A stretch of DNA of 64,000 nt from an uncultured Mariniplasma sp. (GCA_964587475.1 CAZPLF010000006.1:1-64000), one strand, 5' to 3'. Counted from the first letter of the stretch, positions 5,068 through 52,898 are shown. A program made the numbers and translations. Notes: generated by a model from the sequence alone, not told the origin.

Positions 5068-5074
5068 AATATTG

Positions 5075-5275
5075 CGATGACAAGGACAAACAGACTTGAT
5101 TGAAGTTAAAAGCGATTTAGGGATGGTGTAAGCCTAAAAACTACTCACAAGTTATGGATCACCTTCGAGCAAAAATAGAATTAAGTGCTAGAGAACGCTC
5201 TCTAGAACTAAGGTGGTACCGCGGAATGTTATTTCGTCCTTAGCTTTTAAGGACGATTTTATTTTTAAGATTAGA
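5075..5275 (+). promoter_or_regulatory. T-box riboswitch leader of ileS (AUC specifier)
   Basis: Conserved T-box sequence AACUAAGGUGGUACCGCGG at 5206-5224. Terminator hairpin UCGUCCUUAG...UAAGGACGA plus a U-run at 5234-5268. Candidate specifier AUC-A at 5158-5161. Confidence 0.85.
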
Positions 5276-5287
5276 GGAGAGATGAAG

Positions 5288-7993
5288 ATGGAATATAAAC
5301 ACACACTGCTTATGCCTAAAACCGATTTTCAGATGCGTGGTAATTTAGGTGTTAGAGAATTAGAATTTCAACAGAGATGGAAAGATATAGATTTATATCA
5401 AAAAGTCTTGGAACAAAATAAAGATAATGAACCTTTTGTACTACACGATGGACCTCCTTATGCGAATGGAGATATCCATATAGGACATACATTGAATAAA
5501 GTCTTGAAAGACTTTGTTTTGCGTTATCAGACAATGATCGGTAAGTATGTCAGATACATCCCAGGTTGGGATACTCATGGACTACCTATTGAAACAGCAT
5601 TAACCAAAAAAGGTATCAATCGTAAAGAAATGCCTCTTGTAGATTATCGCAAACTCTGTCAGAAATTTGCTGCTGAGCAAGTTGCAAAACAGAAAATCCA
5701 ATTTGAAAGACTCGGAATCTTGGGAGAATGGGATTATCCATATATCACTTATGATAAGGATTTTGAAGCAAGCCAAGTCAAGGTATTTGCTAAAATGGTC
5801 GATCGTGGATTGGTTTATAAAGGACTTAAACCGGTTTTTTGGTCTCCATCTTCAGAATCTGCGCTTGCAGAAGCTGAAATTGAATATCAGGATAAACAGT
5901 CGACATCAGTTTATGTTGCTTTTCCTTCGGTTGAACAAAAAGGATTATTACAAGATGCCTCTTTTATCATATGGACAACAACACCATGGACGCTACCAGC
6001 AAATCTGGCCATCTCAGTTCATCCACGTTTGAATTATAATGTGATTTTAGCAGATGGCAATAAGTATGTAGTTGGTGAAACATTGCTTAATGAATTAAAG
6101 AAAATACTCAATTGGACTGATGTTTCTATCTTGGGAACTCTTAAAGGGAAAGAATTAGAATTAGTTCAATATAAGCATCCGCTTTATGATCGCATTTCAC
6201 CTATTATTGTTGGTGAACATGTCACTGATACTGATGGTACTGGACTCGTTCATACAGCACCTGGACATGGTGAAGATGATTACCGTATCGGCAAAACTTA
6301 TAATCTTGAAATATTATGTCCTGTCGATGATAAAGGATATATGACAGAAGAAGCTGGACCATTTAGTGGTTTATATTACGAAGTAGCAAATGAAGAAATC
6401 GTCAAAGCACTTGAAGAAAAAAAGGTTTTACTCAGAAAAGATCGTTTCACTCACTCCTATCCTCATGATTGGAGAACTAAGAAACCAGTGATATTTAGAG
6501 CAACCCCTCAATGGTTTGCTAGTATTGATAAATTAAAAGATGAACTATTAGACGAAGTCGCTAAAGTTTCTTGGATCCCTGTTTGGGGTGAAGTCAGAAT
6601 TTCTAATATGATTACTGGTCGTGAAGACTGGTGCATTTCAAGACAACGTGCTTGGGGTGTTCCAATTCCTGTCTTTTATGCTGAAAACAATGAACCCATT
6701 TTGGATCAGAAAGTCTTGAGTCATATCAGTGATCTATTTAAAGAATTTGGTTCAGATGTATGGTATGAAAGAGAAGCTAAAGACCTACTACCAAAAGGAT
6801 TTAAACATCCTGGTAGTCCTAATGATTTGTTTAGAAAAGAAACTGACATCATGGATGTTTGGTTTGATTCTGGCACCTCATACTCCATTTTGGAATCTAG
6901 AGGCATCAAGTACCCTGCAGACCTCTATCTAGAGGGATCTGATCAATATCGTGGTTGGTTTAATTCTTCTCTGATCACTGGTGTTGCTGCCTATGGAAAA
7001 GCACCTTATAAAAAGGTCGTATCACATGGATTTGTTCTCGATGGACAAGGCAGAAAAATGAGTAAATCACTAGGTAATACAGTTGATCCTCTCGTGATTA
7101 TGAAACAGCAAGGTGCGGATCTATTAAGATTATGGGTTGCAACAGTTGATTATCAAAGCGACGTTAGAATCAGCAATGATATGATGACACAAATTTCTGA
7201 AGGTTATAGAAAAATCAGAAACACTTTCCGCTTTATGTTAGGTAATCTTGATGGATTCGACCCTGAAACGGATTACGTGGGTTATTCGATGAGAGGTAGA
7301 CTCAACCGTGTTATGACATTAAAATATAATCTTCTAGTATCACAAGTACTAGATGCTTATGAAAATTACGCTTTCGATAAGGTTTACCGCGCTGTTGTAC
7401 CATTTATGACGAATGAGTTATCGGCTTTTTATCTAGATTACACAAAAGACATCTTGTATATTGAAAAAGAAAATGACTTTGAACGTAAATGTGTTCAATC
7501 AACGCTATATGATATCACACTAGGAATGCTGAAATTATTGACACCAATCATTCCTCACACCACTTCTGAAGCTTATCTTTTATTACCATTTAGAGAAAAA
7601 GAAGACATTTATTTAGAGCAAATGCCAAGTGCAGGTAGTAAAATGGATGAATATCTTGTAGAAGCATTTGATATATTCGATTCTGTTCGACAAGTCGTTC
7701 TAAAGAAACTTGAAGATGCAAGAGAATTAAAGATTATTGGTAAATCACTTGCTGCTCAAGTCGATTTGATAGTGACCAAAGAGCAGATGGAAGCCATAAA
7801 GATTTTAGAAATGAAAATCCATCAAGTTTTGATCGTATCCAAAGTAAATATTACTTTAGGTGCTCAACTTGATGTCAAAGTATCACCCGCAACAGGAGCT
7901 ACATGTGATCGCTGTTGGAATATCGTTGATCATGTTCATGAAAATGGACTATGTGATCGATGCAATCATATCCTAGGAGAAGATAAAAAATGA
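5288..7993 (+). CDS. ileS: Isoleucyl-tRNA synthetase
   Basis: HIGH (PPYANGDIHIGH) and KMSKS motifs. Start placed at MEYKHTLLMPKT by alignment to the canonical IleS N-terminus. The ORF-track start at 5213 runs into the T-box. Confidence 0.93.
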   Translation: MEYKHTLLMPKTDFQMRGNLGVRELEFQQRWKDIDLYQKVLEQNKDNEPFVLHDGPPYANGDIHIGHTLNKVLKDFVLRYQTMIGKYVRYIPGWDTHGLPIETALTKKGINRKEMPLVDYRKLCQKFAAEQVAKQKIQFERLGILGEWDYPYITYDKDFEASQVKVFAKMVDRGLVYKGLKPVFWSPSSESALAEAEIEYQDKQSTSVYVAFPSVEQKGLLQDASFIIWTTTPWTLPANLAISVHPRLNYNVILADGNKYVVGETLLNELKKILNWTDVSILGTLKGKELELVQYKHPLYDRISPIIVGEHVTDTDGTGLVHTAPGHGEDDYRIGKTYNLEILCPVDDKGYMTEEAGPFSGLYYEVANEEIVKALEEKKVLLRKDRFTHSYPHDWRTKKPVIFRATPQWFASIDKLKDELLDEVAKVSWIPVWGEVRISNMITGREDWCISRQRAWGVPIPVFYAENNEPILDQKVLSHISDLFKEFGSDVWYEREAKDLLPKGFKHPGSPNDLFRKETDIMDVWFDSGTSYSILESRGIKYPADLYLEGSDQYRGWFNSSLITGVAAYGKAPYKKVVSHGFVLDGQGRKMSKSLGNTVDPLVIMKQQGADLLRLWVATVDYQSDVRISNDMMTQISEGYRKIRNTFRFMLGNLDGFDPETDYVGYSMRGRLNRVMTLKYNLLVSQVLDAYENYAFDKVYRAVVPFMTNELSAFYLDYTKDILYIEKENDFERKCVQSTLYDITLGMLKLLTPIIPHTTSEAYLLLPFREKEDIYLEQMPSAGSKMDEYLVEAFDIFDSVRQVVLKKLEDARELKIIGKSLAAQVDLIVTKEQMEAIKILEMKIHQVLIVSKVNITLGAQLDVKVSPATGATCDRCWNIVDHVHENGLCDRCNHILGEDKK

Positions 7994-42740: not shown

Positions 42741-44918
42741 ATGAATGATCCTTTGTTTCAATCCCTTATTGAATCTTTCGATTCATATATAAAAAGAGAT
42801 TCAGACATTAAGCTTATTGAAAAGGCTTATGTTTTAGCGCGGGATAAACACGAAGGACAAATGAGAAAGAGTGGGGAACCATATATCACTCATCCCATTG
42901 CTGTAGCTAAAATTTTAGCTGAACTAAGAGCTGGACCTGCAACTTTGATTGCTGCTCTGCTTCACGACACAGTCGAAGATACAGTTTTGACTTTGAAGGA
43001 TGTTGATTCAATGTTTGGTTCTGATATTGCTCAATTGGTTGATGGTGTGACCAAAATTGGGAAATTATCATTTACAACAACAGCAAGTCAAGTAGATAAT
43101 CATCAAAAGATGCTGCTAGCGATGGCTAAAGACATCAGAGTTGTCTTAATCAAAATAGCAGATAGACTTCATAACGTTAGAACTTTAGATTCTATGTCTC
43201 CAGAAAAACAATATAAAATTGCGACTGAGACCTTAGAGATTTATGCACCTTTGGCTCATCGCTTAGGTATTTTTAGAATTAAAGCTGAATTGGAAGACCG
43301 TTCCTTAAGATATACAGATCCACCGATGTATTATCGAGTATCTAATATGATACAAGCAAAAAGAAATGAACGGGAAGCGTCCATCGACCATGTGATCACA
43401 AATATCACTGAATTGTTTACGATGAGTGATCTACATGATTTTGAAATCAAAGGACGCATAAAGAATATTTTTAGTATCTATAAGAAAATGGTTAAAGATA
43501 GCCGTGCTTTTGAAGATATCTATGATTTGCTAGCTGTTCGAATCATTGTCGATCGCATTGAAACATGCTATCAAGCACTTGGTATTATTCATGCGAATTT
43601 TACACCCATACCAAGAAGGTTCAAAGATTACATTGCTGTACCAAAACCTAATATGTATCAATCTTTGCATACGACAGTGCTTTCAGATGATGGTACCCTT
43701 TTTGAAGTTCAAATAAGAACCTCAGAAATGGATCAGATAGCTGAATATGGGATTGCTGCACACTGGGCATATAAAGAAAATAAAACGTATTCCAAGGAAA
43801 AAGAACAGTTTGAAATAGCCCAAAAATTAAAGTGGTACGGCGAATTACTCAAGATGAGTGAGGATATCGATGAAACCGATGGCGGGGCAGAGGAGTTTGT
43901 AGGTACCATAAAAGGCGATATTTTAGAAGCCAATATTTATGTTTTTACGCCAAAAGGTGAAGTTATTGAGTTACCAAAAGGATCAACACCTATAGACTTT
44001 GCTTATCGAATCCATACCGATATCGGAAATAAGATGGTTGGCGCACTTGTCAATAATCGTATTGTCACTTTGGATTACCAATTAAGTACTGGTGACATCG
44101 TCAGTGTCAAGATTAACAAAAACTCCTATGGCCCAAGTGAAGATTGGATGAAAATTGCCAAATCTGCACATGCTAAACATAAGATTAAGAGCTTTTTAAA
44201 CAAACAAAATCGTGATCAAATTATCATCATGGGTAAAGATATGCTAGAAAGAGAACTTTCTTCGCAAAAAGTCACCGAAACCCTAGATGATCAATTTGCA
44301 AAAAAACATTTTGAAAAAAATATGGTGACCAGTGTTCCTGACCTATATCTAGAAATTGGTAAGGGCATCATTAGTCCTAAAACTGTTGTCAGTAAATTGC
44401 TAGGTCAAGAAGTCGATCGCGACCTAATGTTACAAAGACAAATGGAAAAGGCATCAAAACAACTGACTACACATAGTGAAACAGGCGTTGTGATTGAAGG
44501 TTTATCAAGCCCTCAATTAAAACTTGCAAACTGTTGTCTTCCCATACCTGGAGATTCGATAATAGGTTATGTCAGTAAACAGAGTGGCATCGTGATCCAT
44601 GCTGCATTTTGTCCAAATTGCAGCCAATTTGAAGAAAATCGACTGATTGATGCTTTTTGGTCAAATAAGATTTCTAGAAAATATCCAACATGGATTAAAG
44701 TTGTCGGTGGAAATAGACCAACCATGCTCGCAGATGTTGTTACTGTCATTAACGCTTCAAGTGTCTCCATTGCTGAAGTCAATGCAATGACAACAAATAA
44801 TATGGAAATGATTATGCGAATCAAAGTTTCAATCGATAATGCTCAATCACTACAATCCTTAATGATTAACTTAAGAAAAGTAAGTGAATTGTATAGTGTG
44901 GAAAGAGATTTCAAATGA
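42741..44918 (+). CDS. relA: Bifunctional (p)ppGpp synthetase/hydrolase Rel
   Basis: HD hydrolase domain, synthetase domain, then TGS and ACT. 725 aa. Confidence 0.92.
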   Translation: MNDPLFQSLIESFDSYIKRDSDIKLIEKAYVLARDKHEGQMRKSGEPYITHPIAVAKILAELRAGPATLIAALLHDTVEDTVLTLKDVDSMFGSDIAQLVDGVTKIGKLSFTTTASQVDNHQKMLLAMAKDIRVVLIKIADRLHNVRTLDSMSPEKQYKIATETLEIYAPLAHRLGIFRIKAELEDRSLRYTDPPMYYRVSNMIQAKRNEREASIDHVITNITELFTMSDLHDFEIKGRIKNIFSIYKKMVKDSRAFEDIYDLLAVRIIVDRIETCYQALGIIHANFTPIPRRFKDYIAVPKPNMYQSLHTTVLSDDGTLFEVQIRTSEMDQIAEYGIAAHWAYKENKTYSKEKEQFEIAQKLKWYGELLKMSEDIDETDGGAEEFVGTIKGDILEANIYVFTPKGEVIELPKGSTPIDFAYRIHTDIGNKMVGALVNNRIVTLDYQLSTGDIVSVKINKNSYGPSEDWMKIAKSAHAKHKIKSFLNKQNRDQIIIMGKDMLERELSSQKVTETLDDQFAKKHFEKNMVTSVPDLYLEIGKGIISPKTVVSKLLGQEVDRDLMLQRQMEKASKQLTTHSETGVVIEGLSSPQLKLANCCLPIPGDSIIGYVSKQSGIVIHAAFCPNCSQFEENRLIDAFWSNKISRKYPTWIKVVGGNRPTMLADVVTVINASSVSIAEVNAMTTNNMEMIMRIKVSIDNAQSLQSLMINLRKVSELYSVERDFK

Positions 44919-45349
44919 GATGCATTGTTCAAAGAGTTGTTCAAGCTCTAGTTGAAGTGGAAAATGAAGTTATAGGATCAATTGAAAAAGGGTTTTTAGT
45001 TTACGTGGGCATCCATCATTCGGATGATGAAAAAACAGTTGAAAAGATGGCTCAAAAAGTGATTTCATTACGCATATTTGAAGATGAACAAGAGAAAATG
45101 AATCTCAATTTGAAACAGGTTGATGGACAAATATTATCCATTTCTCAATTTACACTTTATGGTGATACCAAAGGTAATAATAGACCATCATTTATCGAAG
45201 CTGCTAAACCAGAGCAAGCTATAAAACTCTATAATCTTTTTAATGAAAAATTAGAAGAACATTGTCATGTGGAAAAAGGATTGTTTGGTGCCCATATGAA
45301 AATCAAATCAATCAATGATGGACCAGTAACAATCCTCATTGAAATGTAA
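44915..45349 (+). CDS. dtd: D-aminoacyl-tRNA deacylase
   Basis: MRCIVQRV N-terminus and the SQFTLY motif. 144 aa. Confidence 0.9.
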   Translation: MRCIVQRVVQALVEVENEVIGSIEKGFLVYVGIHHSDDEKTVEKMAQKVISLRIFEDEQEKMNLNLKQVDGQILSISQFTLYGDTKGNNRPSFIEAAKPEQAIKLYNLFNEKLEEHCHVEKGLFGAHMKIKSINDGPVTILIEM

Positions 45350-45374
45350 TTGACAAAAGTAGTAAATTAAGATA

Positions 45375-45585
45375 TCATGTTTATGTAAGTGAATCGTCTG
45401 TGATGAAGGAAGAATTCATTGATTTCTATTAGCGATGGCAGATAGTGAAAGAGCCAAGATATCAAGAATTGTGACACCTTCGGAGACATGTTGTTATTGA
45501 GGGCTAGAAATGTTCTAGAACTAAGGTGGTACCGCGTATACAATTACGTCCTTAGATGTTTTAAGGATGTTTTTATTTTTTTGGA
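45375..45585 (+). promoter_or_regulatory. T-box riboswitch leader upstream of GNAT, hisS and aspS
   Basis: T-box sequence AACUAAGGUGGUACCGCG at 45518-45536. Terminator CCUUAG...UUAAGGA plus a U-run at 45550-45582. Specifier region GUGACACCUUCGG at 45470-45482. Confidence 0.85.
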
Positions 45586-45593
45586 GTATATAA

Positions 45594-46172
45594 ATGAAGA
45601 AACCCTATCAGAAAATGCCAGTGATCTATTTTGATGATTATTGTTTGAGAACCATCAAAAGATCAGATGCAAAAAACATGTATGAATACGGAAAAGATCC
45701 AGAAGTCACCTGTTTTTTGTCGTGGGGACCATTTATTCTTCTTGAAGAAGCCAAAAAATCGATTGTAAACATTTTTCTTCCCCGATTAAGAGAAGAATTA
45801 CCCGTAGGGTATGCCATAATTGATATGAAAATACCAAAAATGATTGGAACCATCGATTTTCATAGTAAAATAAAAGGTGTCAATGGTGCTGAAATTGGAT
45901 TTGTGTTGCATAAGACTTACTGGAATAAGGGAATCATGACGAAAGCACTTCAAAAAATGGTGGTTATTGGATTTGATTATTTGAATTTTGATGTCATTAA
46001 GATAAAACATCTTAAACAAAATACTGCAAGTCAGAAAGTCATTCAAAAAGTTGGTTTTAAATTTGTTAAGACCGAATTGTATATATTGGAAAAACGAGAT
46101 CATGTCGTAAAAGATGAACTGCTCACTTATGAGCTAACTAAGGAGGATTATTATGGCAATCAACAAAGTTAA
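45594..46172 (+). CDS. GNAT-family N-acetyltransferase (RimJ/RimL-like)
   Basis: 192 aa. Acetyl-CoA motif A region HKTYWNKGIMTKAL. The stop overlaps the hisS start. Confidence 0.65.
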   Translation: MKKPYQKMPVIYFDDYCLRTIKRSDAKNMYEYGKDPEVTCFLSWGPFILLEEAKKSIVNIFLPRLREELPVGYAIIDMKIPKMIGTIDFHSKIKGVNGAEIGFVLHKTYWNKGIMTKALQKMVVIGFDYLNFDVIKIKHLKQNTASQKVIQKVGFKFVKTELYILEKRDHVVKDELLTYELTKEDYYGNQQS

Positions 46173-47421
46173 GGGAACCTATGATGTTTTACCAAATGAA
46201 TCATATCTATGGCAGGCCTTGGAACAGAAAATCAGAGATATATTAAGTGTATATAATATGAAGGAAATGCGTACGCCAATCATGGAATATAGCGATGTTT
46301 TTCATCGTCATACTGAATTATCGGATATGGTTACCAAAGAAACCTATGATTTTGATGACCGTGCAGATAGAAAGCTCACATTAAGACCTGAAGGCACAGC
46401 AGGTATTATCCGAAGTTACGTTGAAAATAAACTATATGCAAGTCAAGAATTGGAAAAAGTTTACTATATTGGCCCAAATTTCCGTTATGAAAGACCACAA
46501 AAAGGACGATATCGTCAATTCTATCAATTTGGCGTTGAAGCAATAGGAGCAATTGATCCAGCACTTGATGCTGAAATGATTATTTTGTCCTATGATTTCA
46601 TCAAGAGATTAGGCCTTAAGGGCGTTAGAGTCAGAGTTAATAGCTTAGGTGATGAATCTTCCAGTTTGAATTATCAAGAAGCACTAAAGACCTATTTTAT
46701 GCCACATCTCAAAGAACTTTGTGATGATTGTAAAGTGAGACTAAATAAAAATCCTTTACGCATCCTTGATTGCAAAATCGATCACAAGAATGAAGCGGTA
46801 AAAAATGCTCCAACACCTCAAGATTATTTGAATCATGAATCTAGAGCTTACTTTAAGCAAGTTCTTGATCATTTGAATGCAGCGAAAATCAGTTATGAAA
46901 TCGCGCCTAAGCTCGTTCGAGGATTAGACTACTATAGTCACACAGTTTTTGAAATAGAAGCGGATATTGAAGGATTTGGTGCTCAAAACGTACTTGGTGG
47001 AGGCGGCAGATATCAAAATTTAGTTTCTGAACTCGGTGGACCTGATTTAGGTGGAATCGGTTTTGCTTTTGGTATGGAAAGACTCTTGCTCGCACTTGAT
47101 GCTGAAAATGTTAATTTTGCTCAGGAAAGAGATCTAGATGCCTTTGTTATCGTTTTTAAGGATGAGTTAAAGACAGTAGCAACTGAGATTCTATATGAAC
47201 TTCGAAAAGCTGACTTGGTTGCAGATACCAATTACTCGCAAAAAGCCTTTAAGGGACAACTTAAACAGGCACTTCGTTATAAAGCGAAATACTTGATCAT
47301 TTTAGGTGAAGAAGAGTTTCAAAAAGGTGTAGTAGCAATAAAAGATACAAAGACAGAAGTTCAAGAAGAAGTTTTAATTCCTAAAATTAAAAAGTACTTA
47401 TTAGAAAAATTGGAGAAGTAA
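46153..47421 (+). CDS. hisS: Histidyl-tRNA synthetase
   Basis: Class II aaRS motifs with an HisRS-specific fold. 422 aa. Confidence 0.92.
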   Translation: MAINKVKGTYDVLPNESYLWQALEQKIRDILSVYNMKEMRTPIMEYSDVFHRHTELSDMVTKETYDFDDRADRKLTLRPEGTAGIIRSYVENKLYASQELEKVYYIGPNFRYERPQKGRYRQFYQFGVEAIGAIDPALDAEMIILSYDFIKRLGLKGVRVRVNSLGDESSSLNYQEALKTYFMPHLKELCDDCKVRLNKNPLRILDCKIDHKNEAVKNAPTPQDYLNHESRAYFKQVLDHLNAAKISYEIAPKLVRGLDYYSHTVFEIEADIEGFGAQNVLGGGGRYQNLVSELGGPDLGGIGFAFGMERLLLALDAENVNFAQERDLDAFVIVFKDELKTVATEILYELRKADLVADTNYSQKAFKGQLKQALRYKAKYLIILGEEEFQKGVVAIKDTKTEVQEEVLIPKIKKYLLEKLEK

Positions 47422-47422
47422 T

Positions 47423-49141
47423 ATGAAATATACACACCACAACAATGAATTGAATAGCACGCATCTCAATCAAAAAGTGTTTCTAAAAGGTTGGGTAGCC
47501 AAAAATAGAAATCTTGGAGGTCTTATGTTTATTGATTTAAGAGACCGTTTTGGTATAACTCAACTTGTTGTCAAACCAGAAAACCCATTTTATGAGATTG
47601 CTCTTAAGATTAAGAATGAGTTTGTCATTGAAGCCAAAGGTATTGTCATTATGCGCGAGAGCATCAATAAAGGAATTGCTACTGGAGAGATTGAAGTTGA
47701 TGTCACTGAACTCACGATTTTGAGCGCAGCTGAAACAACACCAATGATTATTGCAAATGATACAGATGCGTTAGAAGACACCAGACTTAAATATAGATAT
47801 CTAGACTTAAGAAGACCAGTGATGCAAAACTTTATGATTAAAAGACATCAAATCACTCAAGCGATTCGTTCAACTTTAGTCGATGAAGGATTTTATGAAC
47901 TGGAAACACCTATATTAGGTAAATCTACTCCTGAAGGAGCTAGAGATTATCTTGTACCTTCTAGATTATATCCAGGCACTTTCTATGCGCTTCCTCAATC
48001 ACCACAAATCTATAAGCAGCTTTTCATGATTGCAGGATTTGAGAAGTATTTTCAGGTTGCACGTTGCTTTAGAGATGAAGATCTTAGAGCAGATAGACAA
48101 CCCGAGTTTACTCAAATAGATATTGAAGCATCCTTTGTTGATCAATCAGATGTTCAAGAAGTAGTTGAAAAAGTCATGGTACAAACATTTAAGAAAGTGC
48201 TTGATATCGATGTAAAAGCACCATTTGTTCAAATGTCATATCAGGAAGCTATGGAAAAATATGGTACTGATAAACCTGATATGCGCTATGAATTATTATT
48301 ACAAGACTATACTGATTTCTTTAAATCAATTGATATTCCATTTTTTAATGATAGAGAGTTTGTTAAAGGACTATTGGTTGAGAATGGTAGCCATTTGACG
48401 AGAAAAAACATCGATGCACTGACTGATCTAGTCAAGAAAAACCATGGTGAAGCGCTTGCCTTTGTTAAGATGAGCGAAGGTGTCATATCTGGAAGCATTG
48501 TGAAATACATGAGTGAAGAAGAGCAATCCTCACTTGGTTTAAACAATGGTGAGATTTTGTTTCTTGTACCTGGTAAATTTGACAATGTGTCATCTGCTCT
48601 TGGTGCATTAAGAATTGCTATTGCTACAGAATTTAAGTTGATTCCAGAAGGTGTTTATAAGTTTCTTTGGGTTGTTGATTGGCCATTGTTAGAATATAAC
48701 GAAGAAGAACAAAGATATTATGCAAAACATCATCCATTTACTGCACCGGTTGATCCTAAAGTCCTCAAGAATAATCCGAAGGATGCGATGGCTAAAGCCT
48801 ATGATATCGTGTTAAATGGCTATGAAATCGGTGGAGGATCCATTCGTATTCATAATCAGGAAGTTCAAAAATTAATGTTTGATACATTAGGATTAACAAA
48901 AGAAGACGTAGCCCATCGCTTTGGTTTCTTTGTTGATGCCTTAAAATATGGAACACCACCACATGGTGGATTAGCTTTGGGATTGGATCGGGTTGTCATG
49001 CTGATGACGAACACATCAAACATCAAAGATGTTGTAGCCTTCCCAAAAACACAAAGTGCAAAAGATATGATGATGCAAGCACCTAGTGATGTTGATCAGA
49101 TTCAGTTGGACGAATTGCAGATTAAGGTGACTAAACCATGA
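47423..49141 (+). CDS. aspS: Aspartyl-tRNA synthetase
   Basis: N-terminal OB anticodon-binding domain, class II core with the FRDEDLRADRQPEFTQ motif and a GAD insertion. Confidence 0.92.
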   Translation: MKYTHHNNELNSTHLNQKVFLKGWVAKNRNLGGLMFIDLRDRFGITQLVVKPENPFYEIALKIKNEFVIEAKGIVIMRESINKGIATGEIEVDVTELTILSAAETTPMIIANDTDALEDTRLKYRYLDLRRPVMQNFMIKRHQITQAIRSTLVDEGFYELETPILGKSTPEGARDYLVPSRLYPGTFYALPQSPQIYKQLFMIAGFEKYFQVARCFRDEDLRADRQPEFTQIDIEASFVDQSDVQEVVEKVMVQTFKKVLDIDVKAPFVQMSYQEAMEKYGTDKPDMRYELLLQDYTDFFKSIDIPFFNDREFVKGLLVENGSHLTRKNIDALTDLVKKNHGEALAFVKMSEGVISGSIVKYMSEEEQSSLGLNNGEILFLVPGKFDNVSSALGALRIAIATEFKLIPEGVYKFLWVVDWPLLEYNEEEQRYYAKHHPFTAPVDPKVLKNNPKDAMAKAYDIVLNGYEIGGGSIRIHNQEVQKLMFDTLGLTKEDVAHRFGFFVDALKYGTPPHGGLALGLDRVVMLMTNTSNIKDVVAFPKTQSAKDMMMQAPSDVDQIQLDELQIKVTKP

Positions 49142-49635
49142 AGACCATTGTATTAGCTGGTGGTTGTTTTTGGGGCCTTGAAGCCTATTTTAATCAACTG
49201 AAAGGCGTCGTAGATACATCTGTTGGTTATGTTGACGGTAATATGAAAAACCCTACATACGAACAAGTATGCAGCGGAAAAGCAAAACATGCTGAAGCAT
49301 GTCAGGTTTTTTATGATGAAACTGTCATCACGTTGGAACAAGTTCTAGATCAATTTTTTAGAATCATCAATCCTTTTAGCATCAATAAGCAAGGACACGA
49401 TATTGGTCATCAATACCGAAGTGGTATTTACTTTAATGATAGCTTAGATGAACCATTGATTTTAAGTTTTATGAAAACATATTTTGGTAAAGATTTTAAA
49501 CGCGTGGCAACTCAAGTTAAACCTAATAATGATTATGAACTTGCAGAAGCATATCATCAGGATTACTTAATTAAAAATCCAGGTGGATATTGTCATGTAA
49601 ACTTAGGCTTAGCAACAAAGGAGGAAATTAAATAA
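49138..49635 (+). CDS. msrA: Peptide methionine sulfoxide reductase A
   Basis: GGCFWG active-site motif. Confidence 0.9.
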   Translation: MKTIVLAGGCFWGLEAYFNQLKGVVDTSVGYVDGNMKNPTYEQVCSGKAKHAEACQVFYDETVITLEQVLDQFFRIINPFSINKQGHDIGHQYRSGIYFNDSLDEPLILSFMKTYFGKDFKRVATQVKPNNDYELAEAYHQDYLIKNPGGYCHVNLGLATKEEIK

Positions 49636-50108
49636 TGCGAAAGGATTATATTTCCTGGGATCAATATTTTATGGGTGTTGCAAAATTATCCTCATTAAGA
49701 AGCAAGGACCCTAGCACTCAAGTTGGCGCATGTATTATCAATCCTGGTAAGCGGATTGTAGGTATAGGCTATAATGGTCTACCGCAAGGATGCAGCGATG
49801 AAACGTTTCCTTGGGCAAGTGAAGGAGAATATGTAGATACAAAGTATCCATATGTCGTTCATGCAGAAGCAAATGCAATTCTTAATGCAACAACTAATCT
49901 TAAAGGCTCATCGATATATGTTACCTTATTTCCATGCAATGAATGTACGAAACTGATCATTCAAAGTGGTATTATAGAAATTGTTTATGAATCTGATAAG
50001 TATAAAGATACAAAAGAACATCAAGCGGCAATCAAAATGCTCAAAGCATCTGGAGTTAGATATCGCCAAATAGAAGTTGGTGAATTAAGCTATGTTACAA
50101 CTAATTAA
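49635..50108 (+). CDS. dCMP deaminase (ComEB-like)
   Basis: CDA zinc motifs HAEANA and PCNECTK. Confidence 0.88.
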   Translation: MRKDYISWDQYFMGVAKLSSLRSKDPSTQVGACIINPGKRIVGIGYNGLPQGCSDETFPWASEGEYVDTKYPYVVHAEANAILNATTNLKGSSIYVTLFPCNECTKLIIQSGIIEIVYESDKYKDTKEHQAAIKMLKASGVRYRQIEVGELSYVTTN

Positions 50109-51087
50109 GCAATACAAAAAACTATTAATTATCCTCATATTTCCCTTTGTATATTTACTTTTTGTTTTGGTTGCACCTACACAATTAGCAGTAATTGCTC
50201 CAGGTGGACTCACACAAGTAGTTGAAACAATCGAAATTGATGGATATGAGATGGTTGACAATTTCAATACAATATATGTTTATACATATTCTCCAATAAC
50301 CCCATTTCAATCGTGGGTTTTAGCCATTGACGAAACCATCAACATCTATCCGATGACGAAGCGTCAAAAGGATTTATCGATGAAAGATGAATTTGCACAA
50401 GGTCAACTTTCGAAATTGGTCTCACTAAAAACATCAATCATTAAAGCCTATGAACTTGCTCATGATAGTAAACCTGAAATAAGCATTGATTATCATTATG
50501 AAGGGTTATATGTCTATTACCGACCTAGTCACATCGAAGGTCTTGAAATAGGGGATCAAATCGTTGCAATCAATGGTCGACACTATTCTGATTATACACA
50601 TGAAGAATTCGTTGCTTTAGCTTATGATCCTGAAGTTGAGTTTACAATTAAGCGTATTGAAGGTGAAGGAAACATCTATGAAAGTGTATCATATGTTTAT
50701 ACTGAAGATGATGCCTATATGATTTTTTATCCTGATTATGTGATTGATTTAGCAACTCCAAGCTTTCAGCTACCAGGTTTAAGTAGTCTTGTTGGCGGCC
50801 CAAGCGGGGGACTCATCCAAACACTTAGTATTTATGTAAGTTTAGTAAATATAAACATTGGTGATGTAAAAATTGCGGGTACAGGGACGATAGAAATGAG
50901 TGGAGATGTCGGTAGAATTGGTGGAATTACGCAAAAAATGTATACTGCAATCTACAATAATATCGACATTATGTTCATGCCATCATCCCATTATTCTGAG
51001 ATTCCCAACATGGATTATCCATTTATAATTGTAGCTGTAGACACTGTAGAAGAGGCGGTACAATGGCTCAATGAAGAGTTTAACTAA
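50092..51087 (+). CDS. YlbL/SepM-like membrane-anchored PDZ plus Lon-C (S16) protease
   Basis: N-terminal TM, a PDZ-like middle, and a C-terminal VGGPSGGL...GGI..K Lon-like Ser-Lys region. Confidence 0.6.
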   Translation: MLQLIKQYKKLLIILIFPFVYLLFVLVAPTQLAVIAPGGLTQVVETIEIDGYEMVDNFNTIYVYTYSPITPFQSWVLAIDETINIYPMTKRQKDLSMKDEFAQGQLSKLVSLKTSIIKAYELAHDSKPEISIDYHYEGLYVYYRPSHIEGLEIGDQIVAINGRHYSDYTHEEFVALAYDPEVEFTIKRIEGEGNIYESVSYVYTEDDAYMIFYPDYVIDLATPSFQLPGLSSLVGGPSGGLIQTLSIYVSLVNINIGDVKIAGTGTIEMSGDVGRIGGITQKMYTAIYNNIDIMFMPSSHYSEIPNMDYPFIIVAVDTVEEAVQWLNEEFN

Positions 51088-51466
51088 GATAATTGATTTT
51101 GTTTTTCGCTTCTTTAGAAGATTTGCCAAACTGGTTAAAATAATAGATAAAAAAACAGCGATGAAATTAGTTGTCAAATCTGTATTTGGAGCGTTACTGA
51201 TTTCGGTGTTGATCGTTTTAATACCAGCTTTAGTAATGATCAATATGTTTATATATACTAAACTTAAGTTTTTTATATCCATGCTTTTGGTTTTGCTCAT
51301 TATGGGGTGGAGTTTTCTTTATTATTATTTTTATTATCGGTTATTGAAAATTTATCATCCAGCACTTGAAGATATCAATACAAAAATACCTCAATTGACG
51401 GAAAGTACAATTGTTGCCTTATTTTTCATGATTTTAGGCATTGTCGTTCTGTCGGTTGTATTCTAG
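51071..51466 (+). CDS. Small membrane protein, hypothetical
   Basis: 131 aa with 3 TM segments. Confidence 0.4.
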   Translation: MKSLTKIIDFVFRFFRRFAKLVKIIDKKTAMKLVVKSVFGALLISVLIVLIPALVMINMFIYTKLKFFISMLLVLLIMGWSFLYYYFYYRLLKIYHPALEDINTKIPQLTESTIVALFFMILGIVVLSVVF

Positions 51467-51475
51467 GAGGATTCT

Positions 51476-52012
51476 ATGCTTTTAGCAACAATCATTATTA
51501 TATTCTCAATCTTAATAGATCAAATATCCAAACAGGTTGCTCAGGCTTATATACCTCTTTTGATGAGCGGAAATGATAATATCGTTCTTATTCCCAAATT
51601 AATTGAATTGAGTTACCATCAAAATACTGGAGCTTCGTTTAATATTTTTGATGGTGCACAACTATTTTTCATGCTCATTACAATTGTTGCACTGATTATA
51701 TTCGGTTATCTGTTCACAGATATTAATTTCAAAACCAAAAAAGTTTACAGTATTTCCATTGCTTTATTTATAGGTGGAACGCTTGGTAATGCTATCGACC
51801 GCGCTTTATTTGGATATGTTATTGATTTTTTACACTTTCCATTCTTGACACCAATCTTAAATTTATTTGGTGCTAGCAATTTCTATAACAATTTCGCAGA
51901 CATCTTTTTAAGTGCTGCAATCGTTTTATTCGCTATTGATCTATTTGTAATTGATCCAAAGCGAAAGAAAAAGGAGAAACAAAATGTCATTATCAATCAA
52001 GATCAATCATGA
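51476..52012 (+). CDS. lspA: Lipoprotein signal peptidase II
   Basis: Motifs NTGASF, GGTLGNAIDR and FLHFP. Confidence 0.88.
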   Translation: MLLATIIIIFSILIDQISKQVAQAYIPLLMSGNDNIVLIPKLIELSYHQNTGASFNIFDGAQLFFMLITIVALIIFGYLFTDINFKTKKVYSISIALFIGGTLGNAIDRALFGYVIDFLHFPFLTPILNLFGASNFYNNFADIFLSAAIVLFAIDLFVIDPKRKKKEKQNVIINQDQS

Positions 52013-52898
52013 ATCTGTTGGATTGAGGCTAGATCACTTTCTTCTGGAACATTACTATAAAGAAAAAAGTAGAAGTTATGTTCAGCATGCAATCAAAGAA
52101 GGCTATGTATTAGTCAATGGGGTAAAAGCTAAAACTGGACATACGTTAAAATTAGACGATTTAATCCAATTAGAAGCTATTGAAACCAAAAAACTTGATT
52201 TGGATGCTGTCAATTTGCATTTGGACATTGTTTATGAAGATGATGACCTACTCGTCATCAATAAACCTCAAGGTATGGTTGTCCATCCAGCTTCTAGTTA
52301 CCATGAACCAACATTAGTCCATGGTCTTTTATATCAAGTTGACGAATTGAGTTCAATCAATGGGGTTGCACGTCCTGGTATCGTTCATCGTATCGATAAA
52401 GATACTTCAGGATTGCTTGTTGTTGCAAAAAATGACTTTACCCATCAAGCCTTAAGTCATGATCTCTCAGAACATAAAATTCAAAGAGAATACATTACTT
52501 TAGTCTATGGGAAGTTTAAAGAGAACGAGGGAACAATTGATGCTCCAATCTCAAGACACCCCAAAAATAGACTAAAAATGACAATCGTAAGTGGTGGGAA
52601 ACCAGCAAAGACCCATTTTAACGTCATTGATAGATTCGAACACTACACATTGCTGACTTGTCAGTTGGAAACAGGTAGAACACATCAAATTCGTGTTCAT
52701 ATGGCCTATATCAACCACCCCATAGTTGGTGATCCAATCTATGGACCTAAAGATGTTGTCGGAAAAACCGGACAATTCTTACATGCTCAAAAAATATCGT
52801 TTTTCCATCCAACAAAAAAAGAGCATATGACATTTACTGCCGATATGCCCCAAGAATTTAAAGATATTTTGAAAAAACTTACGTCAGATTCTGTTTAG
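51984..52898 (+). CDS. rluD: RluA/RluD-family 23S rRNA pseudouridine synthase
   Basis: S4 domain followed by the HRIDKDTSGLLVVAK catalytic motif. Confidence 0.88.
   Translation: MSLSIKINHESVGLRLDHFLLEHYYKEKSRSYVQHAIKEGYVLVNGVKAKTGHTLKLDDLIQLEAIETKKLDLDAVNLHLDIVYEDDDLLVINKPQGMVVHPASSYHEPTLVHGLLYQVDELSSINGVARPGIVHRIDKDTSGLLVVAKNDFTHQALSHDLSEHKIQREYITLVYGKFKENEGTIDAPISRHPKNRLKMTIVSGGKPAKTHFNVIDRFEHYTLLTCQLETGRTHQIRVHMAYINHPIVGDPIYGPKDVVGKTGQFLHAQKISFFHPTKKEHMTFTADMPQEFKDILKKLTSDSV

Follow-up and report, generated by a model that had tools for sequence, protein, structure and literature searches.

We have analyzed a stretch of 64,000 nucleotides from an uncultured Mariniplasma sp. (GCA_964587475.1, CAZPLF010000006.1:1-64000), referred to below as the window, in which an operon containing hisS and aspS, the genes of the histidine and aspartate tRNA ligases, is headed by a gene coding for a GNAT acetyltransferase of 192 amino acids. 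Our analysis indicates that this operon is, with high probability, controlled by an aspartate-specific T-box transcription attenuator located just upstream of the GNAT gene (Table 1). The elements first described for this region were all recovered in their places by sequence inspection, Pfam, Rfam and RNA folding. The specifier region of the leader reads GUGACACCUUCGGAG, and in it the Asp codon GAC is followed by a purine (A45476) and then by the basal helix of Stem I (CCUUC, paired with GAAGG), which is the order of codon, purine and basal helix that is expected of a T-box, with aspS present in the operon that follows.

We found the same arrangement when 73 orthologous leaders were aligned. 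The codon slot was occupied by GAC in 72 of them, in agreement with the initial annotation, and by GGC in the remaining one (L014), while the base after it was a purine in 71 leaders (A in 66, G in 5; C in the other 2). Consensus folds, calculated for 27 short and 9 long leaders, begin the basal helix exactly one base past GAC, and this helix of 5 base pairs covaries among the 9 orthologues with a long Stem I. In the Anaeroplasma orthologue L069 the Rfam alignment is confident, and the codon slot holds GAC at high posterior probability, between the GAA of the S-turn and an A. At the variable position of the T-box bulge 47 leaders have U and the other 26 have C, G or A appearing in none. The discriminator expected in tRNA-Asp is a G (G73), with which both U and C can pair. 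The database TBDB accepts G:U at this position.

In the window, as the initial annotation had noticed, GAC overlaps the His codon CAC by one base, and from this it had gone on to propose that a single leader might sense either tRNA, GAC being offered to tRNA-Asp or, one register on, CAC to tRNA-His, so that one switch would serve both synthetases. The overlap exists, and GACAC is found in the window and in 54 of the 73 orthologues. A T-box with two codons has a precedent in the Asn/Glu leader of Clostridium acetobutylicum (Saad et al., 2013, as reported in PMC4052509), the hisS-aspS leader of S. aureus has been called a histidine T-box (PMC7927825), and L014 has CAC but no GAC. That the bulge base is G in no leader speaks against tRNA-His. 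We have nevertheless downgraded this discriminator argument: tRNA-His is compatible with the rule behind it, as TBDB makes an exception for His T-boxes, the C73 of tRNA-His being able to pair with G-1. The pattern of conservation does discriminate between the two codons. In 19 of the 73 leaders the overlapping triplet is not CAC (CAA in 11, CGC in 5, and CCT, CCC or CAT in others) though hisS stays in the operon, so that only GAC, and not both codons, is conserved among the orthologues. Besides, the last base of CAC (C45477) pairs with G45409 and forms the first pair of the basal helix; in L051 this C has become U and its partner G has become A, the pair being kept and CAC being lost (it becomes CCU). 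Reading CAC would require opening that pair and placing a pyrimidine at the position of the conserved purine. We consider dual sensing very unlikely, and find no support for it here. The conservation of GAC, together with the helix position and covariation of the last C of CAC, indicates that the switch would read tRNA-Asp and that CAC would be a structural by-product of GAC, the conserved purine A and the first C of the basal helix. The overlap itself is not new. Gutierrez-Preciado et al. (2009), as quoted in PMC5313534, had already pointed out GACAC in the specifier loops of hisS-aspS T-boxes from bacilli and lactobacilli, with the suggestion that it mainly binds tRNA-Asp.

Several points weigh against a reading of the leader as an aspartate switch in front of the GNAT. 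In the window, Rfam aligns the specifier loop with low posterior probability, and the triplet that falls in the slot is ACA. We rejected ACA (Thr) as the specifier, as there is no Thr-related gene downstream and the conserved purine would be lost, the base after ACN being mostly C and A in only about 11 of the 73 leaders. The covariance model, to which the initial annotation had looked to fix the specifier, was in this way ambiguous in the window and gave GAC in the orthologue L069; at no point did it call CAC only in the window. The leaders of Acholeplasma sensu stricto (GGGACAACUU) have GAC two bases from the helix instead of one. L014 (5803-5898, GUGGCACC) carries GGC in the slot yet keeps CAC, which could be a sequencing error of the metagenome-assembled genome (MAG), a tolerated G:U pair with the anticodon of tRNA-Asp or a real switch of specificity. 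We searched the window and 44 loci for tRNA genes and found none. The distal loop AGUGAAA and the missing Stem II would be expected to weaken the binding of a non-glycine tRNA (PMC7583486). Sequence elements, conservation, covariation and gene order are direct observations, while tRNA binding and read-through are argued by analogy with the established T-box mechanism. As for the acetyltransferase, neither fold nor sequence constrains its substrate.

The gap of 244 nucleotides between dtd and the GNAT gene contains a promoter-like site, the T-box leader and an intrinsic terminator. The predicted promoter is a match to the consensus, and the hexamer TTGACA appears at the equivalent spot in most orthologous leaders of the alignment. 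The conserved T-box sequence of 14 nucleotides (AAGGUGGUACCGCG) is located at 45523-45536, and the T-box motif is kept in 72 loci. Terminator and antiterminator share 45546-45555 and are mutually competing folds. Only about 11 nucleotides, carrying the Shine-Dalgarno sequence GGAG, separate the T-run of the terminator from the ATG of the GNAT gene, and we detected no promoter of its own between the two, nor is there room for one. With this spacing, and with the sole good promoter-like site upstream of the leader, transcription of the GNAT gene should depend on uncharged tRNA. The initial annotation had described the GNAT as under T-box control, placed first after the leader and ending inside the start region of hisS, in a relA-dtd-hisS-aspS neighbourhood. 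All of this was borne out: Pfam and NCBIfam searches identified the four genes as expected, the GNAT comes first in the unit and, on the predicted promoter, would be gated by the leader, and the separate promoter that would have detached it was not found.

By analogy with other T-boxes, transcription would begin at the promoter just past dtd, and the nascent leader would fold Stem I and present GAC in the specifier loop, where tRNA-Asp (expected anticodon GUC) would pair with it. If this tRNA is uncharged, its free 3' end would pair with the UGGU bulge and stabilize the antiterminator, and RNA polymerase would then transcribe the GNAT gene, hisS and aspS and, probably, the genes that abut them further downstream. 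Charged tRNA-Asp would be unable to stabilize the antiterminator, and the terminator would form. Both hisS and the GNAT gene appear in this way to be under the control of the charging of aspartyl-tRNA and not of histidyl-tRNA. We looked for terminators across the abutting or overlapping genes at 45594-52898 and detected none. At least eight co-directional genes abut or overlap there (GNAT, hisS, aspS, msrA, the deaminase, the Lon_C/PDZ protein and others), and the transcript gated by the T-box may extend well past both synthetase genes, to about 52898.

Table 1. Features of the T-box-GNAT-hisS-aspS region and its neighbours; coordinates are those of the window.
Feature	Coordinates	Strand	Remarks
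relA/spoT-type (p)ppGpp synthetase-hydrolase	42741-44918	+	Pfam HD_4, RelA_SpoT, TGS, ACT_4; upstream neighbour
dtd (D-aminoacyl-tRNA deacylase)	44915-45349	+	Pfam Tyr_Deacylase 7.9e-57; stop codon abuts the leader promoter
Sigma-70-like promoter, TTGACA-17-TATCAT (predicted)	45350-45378	+	11/12 consensus matches; directly after the dtd stop
T-box leader, glyQS-like reduced architecture	45391-45582	+	Rfam RF00230 and folds; no Stem II or IIA/B
Stem I	45397-45487	+	Basal helix 45405-45409/45477-45481; AG bulge AGCGA; distal loop GAUAGUGAAAG
Specifier codon GAC (Asp)	45473-45475	+	Followed by purine A45476, then the basal helix
Overlapping CAC (His codon)	45475-45477	+	C45477 pairs with G45409, first pair of the basal helix
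Stem III (CUAGAA-AUG-UUCUAG)	45504-45518	+	GAGGG on the 5' side, AA on the 3' side
Antiterminator with T-box bulge	45521-45555	+	UGGU at 45527-45530, expected partner of the tRNA 3' NCCA end
Intrinsic terminator, 11-bp stem and T-run	45546-45582	+	Stem 45546-45570; fold z = -3.5
GNAT acetyltransferase, 192 amino acids	45594-46172	+	Pfam Acetyltransf_3 9.5e-24; Shine-Dalgarno GGAG 45583-45586
hisS (histidine--tRNA ligase)	46153-47421	+	TIGR00442 2.7e-139
aspS (bacterial-type aspartate--tRNA ligase)	47423-49141	+	NF001750 1.4e-238; start 1 nucleotide past the hisS stop
msrA, cytidine/tRNA-type deaminase, Lon_C/PDZ protein, others	49138-52898	+	Co-directional, abutting or overlapping

The order T-box, GNAT, hisS, aspS is not a peculiarity of this genome, which belongs to the Acholeplasmataceae. 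The 109 close homologues of the GNAT derive from genomes of Acholeplasmataceae/Tenericutes. A scan with one genome per species gave 80 loci, and four further ones were compared with them. The T-box motif was located just upstream of the GNAT gene in 72 of the 80, followed by hisS and then aspS wherever the contig continues, and the same order was found in the four additional loci. Among Acholeplasmataceae and Anaeroplasmataceae, about 70 genomes share this order, even where the GNATs share only about 38% identity; among the carriers are Acholeplasma laidlawii, A. oculi, A. equifetale, Peloplasma, 'Mariniplasma' MAGs and many Anaeroplasmataceae. This distribution indicates that the GNAT has accompanied hisS and aspS since before the split of the two families. 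The four most distant GNAT relatives (L077-L080; Caldanaerobacter, Lachnospiraceae and others) are not located beside synthetase genes. In Anaeroplasmataceae we have found that aspS was replaced in place by a gene for a non-discriminating AspRS of archaeal type, of 433 amino acids (L069 7861-9162; NF003483, 1e-124), in loci L058-L070, L074 and L076, the GAC T-box, the GNAT gene and hisS remaining unmoved. Two Acholeplasmataceae MAGs (L055 2835-3842 and L061 5556-6552) have lost the T-box, and dtd abuts or overlaps the GNAT gene, resulting in an uninterrupted string relA-dtd-GNAT-hisS-aspS. Lineage-specific insertions were detected around the unit (L081 734-4682, L083 3759-4841, L081 8635-9351): between dtd and the leader some lineages have an RND/MMPL-type efflux pump with a TetR regulator, or an AI-2E family transporter, and in L081 a ThiF-family gene separates aspS from msrA. 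Among the loci compared, an insertion between the GNAT gene and hisS was never found.

The junction between these two genes is tight. In the window, the Shine-Dalgarno sequence of hisS (AAGGAGGA, 46140-46147) and its ATG (46153) both lie inside the GNAT gene, close to its 3' end. The GNAT stop TAA is at 46170-46172, which gives an overlap of 20 nucleotides. The genes overlap in 56 of 70 loci, by 4-32 nucleotides in most, and are separated by a gap of 5 nucleotides or less in the other 14; Anaeroplasmataceae retain the GNAT with no overlap (gaps of 1-5 nucleotides). The GNAT is probably translationally coupled to hisS.

The acetyltransferase scored far above the cut-off of Pfam Acetyltransf_3 (PF13302; 85.1 bits versus 25.4). 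Profile searches of PDB matched an uncharacterised GNAT of B. anthracis (3fbu, 1.4e-14), RimJ (3igr, 5e-14), YdaF, RimL (1.2e-8) and MccE (3r95, 4e-6). The AlphaFold2 model has a confidence score (pLDDT) of 94.8 and the beta-alpha topology of a GNAT, and Foldseek found GNAT matches down to E values of about 1e-13, with RimJ, RimL, SpeG and YdaF about equally good and MccE not among the top 50. No NCBIfam equivalog cut-off was reached (RimL PRK10151, 24.8 versus 184; RimJ PRK10809, 19.1 versus 190), and by these cut-offs the protein is not an orthologue of RimL or RimJ; identity to any characterised member of Acetyltransf_3 is only about 20%. The best NCBIfam match, 'IleRS with GNAT domain', was dropped, since the IleRS of the window is without such a domain and no synthetase fusions appeared among the top 150 representatives of the family. 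About 89 representatives (clustered at 50% identity) matched at E<1e-30, and among the more distant relatives there are fusions to kinase, peptidase, RNase H or HAD domains. One protein of 1754 amino acids (P0110) has nine separate stretches matching the GNAT profile, apparently a tandem array, and several proteins of about 370 amino acids carry two GNAT copies. In the hidden Markov model alignment, S146, invariant in 27 sequences, is aligned with the serine of the RimL motif 'NQAS'; S141 of RimL acts as general acid (PMC4964394). This catalytic serine is one of 27 residues that are invariant across sequences down to 42% identity. By sequence comparison the protein is of the RimJ/RimL/MccE class with the RimL-type catalytic serine conserved, and the enzyme is probably active.

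As for what it modifies, we tentatively propose an N-alpha-acetyltransferase that modifies some protein of the translation apparatus at its N-terminal amine, and we give this possibility somewhat less than even chances. One alternative is a resistance enzyme of MccE/RimL type: inhibition of AspRS would raise uncharged tRNA-Asp, the T-box would open, and the cell would obtain a detoxifier along with more AspRS. MccE and RimL are in the same Pfam family as the GNAT and were matched by the profile searches. MccE activity is found in RimL itself and the target of microcin C is AspRS (PMC4964394); the switch is Asp-specific and all microcin C-type compounds hit this enzyme. The GNAT-aspS linkage is tight across deep divergence, even after the replacement of aspS, and related GNATs are fused to domains of aminoglycoside-kinase type, typical of small-molecule resistance enzymes. 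However, the MccE match is weaker than those to RimJ and to uncharacterised GNATs, and falls outside the top 50 structural matches, the GNAT persists where the T-box has been lost (L055, L061), and no microcin-related genes were seen nearby. We regard such a role as unlikely, and slightly more so the fuller version in which the T-box would work as an antibiotic sensor for a resistance gene, with a microcin C-like drug blocking charging and the GNAT inactivating the drug.

The GNAT might also be a passenger unrelated to the synthetases, trapped because the ribosome-binding site and start of hisS lie inside its gene, in which case its T-box control would be non-adaptive. The overlap and the internal Shine-Dalgarno sequence would make deletion costly, the nearest GNATs outside the clade (L077-L080) are not adjacent to synthetase genes, and the lack of synthetase fusions among the 150 top representatives goes in the same direction. 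Against this, purifying selection is clear from the invariant residues, the catalytic serine included, Anaeroplasmataceae keep the GNAT without any gene overlap, and genes have been inserted upstream of the T-box or after aspS and never between the GNAT gene and hisS. We judge a passenger to be about as improbable as a resistance enzyme.

The leader that probably responds to tRNA-Asp has a reduced architecture. RF00230 matches 45391-45556 with 60.6 bits (E 7.6e-13, in a local and laxer search of 451 nucleotides), below the gathering score of 93 bits, and the leader was absent from the default Rfam scan of the whole window. The low score is explained by the deletion of 40 model positions, those of Stem II and IIA/B, in the alignment. 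The Anaeroplasma orthologue L069, in which Stem II is kept, gave 107.8 bits, above the gathering score. The linker between Stem I and Stem III of the window leader has only 16 nucleotides (45488-45503), which leaves Stem II and the IIA/B pseudoknot absent; Stem III has flanks of the kind described as the motif RRRxG-Stem III-AA (PMC7583486). The distal loop is AGUGAAA, one change from the usual GGUGAAA. We have seen this change, at 45440-45450 in the window, also in its closest relatives (L001, L004, L005, L007 and L008), and it may mark the onset of the decay that the elbow-binding platform has undergone in other relatives. The sole RNA family found at the default thresholds of Rfam over the whole window was a TPP riboswitch (RF00059, 37624-37720, + strand, 63 bits). 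There is a second T-box in the window, at 5068-5244 (+ strand), with the specifier AUC and located upstream of ileS (5282-7993). It scored 83.7 bits, again below the gathering score since Stem II/IIA-B is absent, and it is of glyQS type though non-glycine. The 12-mer GGTGGTACCGCG has exactly two occurrences in the window, starting from 5212 and 45525 as listed positions.

Comparison of the Asp leaders gives a series of increasing reduction. It starts with Anaeroplasmataceae, whose leaders keep Stem II and the pseudoknot, and continues with those of the window and of Acholeplasma, where Stem II is missing and the long Stem I is kept. In about 30 genomes of Acholeplasmataceae, Stem I has only 32-41 nucleotides from the first conserved 5' bases (UCGUC) to the codon. 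What remains of it is an outer and a basal helix, the specifier loop and a variable, self-complementary hairpin of 4-7 base pairs. These ultrashort leaders have no AG bulge, distal loop or Stem II and keep Stem III, the antiterminator and a terminator with a U-run. They were found in L002 (5841-5993), L003 (Peloplasma), L009-L013, L015-L038, L040 and L051, L018 and L034 being complete genomes. Two ileS leaders from the genomes of L002 and L018 (L085 1270-1480 and L086 1290-1480) retain a long Stem I in which the AG bulge and the distal loop are present, so that the extreme shortening is specific to the Asp leader. A search for other T-boxes in the 84 loci found none. The absence of Stem II is natural in glycine T-boxes and has been attributed to the strong GGC:GCC pairing, transcriptional T-boxes generally need the platform of a long Stem I, and when Stem II is missing, a truncated Stem I shows hardly any binding of tRNA (all in a 2020 review, PMC7583486). 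In the literature searched, which was an incomplete sample, we found no prior description of these reduced leaders, and TBDB may list them. The ultrashort Asp leaders may be the smallest natural T-boxes.

These results have practical and conceptual consequences. Both T-boxes of the window fall below the gathering score of Rfam because Stem II is missing, and standard pipelines will miss T-box control in this group of Mollicutes. The synthesis of HisRS is apparently governed by the charging of aspartyl-tRNA alone, and the comparison of leaders settles the question of GAC or CAC for this lineage. Two features keep their interest, namely the conserved GNAT that heads the hisS-aspS operon and the T-box with its reduced architecture. 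The GNAT, conserved before hisS and aspS and probably translationally coupled, may have a role in translation or may serve to protect AspRS or HisRS. The non-glycine T-boxes that have no Stem II, and likewise the relatives that have in addition given up the platform of Stem I and still have a terminator, challenge two current views in the field: that transcriptional T-boxes need the platform and that a short Stem I needs Stem II. The reduced leaders offer very small natural T-boxes for study.

Among the systems already known, the closest are the hisS-aspS T-boxes of Bacillales and Lactobacillales, which have the same pair of synthetases, the dtd-hisS-aspS neighbourhood, GACAC and transcription attenuation. 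From their descriptions in the literature, the case presented here differs in the GNAT gene between the leader and hisS and in the absence of Stem II/IIA-B. In the latter respect the leader resembles the glyQS type, with Stem I, a short linker, Stem III and the competing antiterminator and terminator, no Stem II or IIA/B being present. The specifier is GAC here (and AUC in the ileS leader of the window) instead of GGC, so that the explanation of the loss of Stem II by GGC:GCC pairing is not applicable. The Asn/Glu T-box of C. acetobutylicum has, like this one, overlapping codons and genes for two amino acids. According to the account given of it in PMC4052509 both tRNAs bind there, whereas the second codon of the present leader varies among the orthologues and includes a base of the helix. 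On the protein side, RimJ, RimL and MccE share with the GNAT the Pfam family, the fold, the RimL-type serine and a length of about 180-190 amino acids. The identity to any of them is only about 20%; its best matches are uncharacterised proteins (3fbu), and a T-box or hisS-aspS context has been described for none of the three. Finally, many relatives of the window leader are similar to the ultrashort-Stem-I ileS T-boxes of actinobacteria: nothing of Stem I is left in these relatives beyond basal helix, specifier loop and a short hairpin, and the elbow-binding platform is gone. The actinobacterial T-boxes keep Stem II/IIA-B and act on translation (PMC7583486), whereas the relatives found here are without Stem II and have an intrinsic terminator. 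The leader of the window, unlike the actinobacterial ultrashort type, still has a long Stem I.

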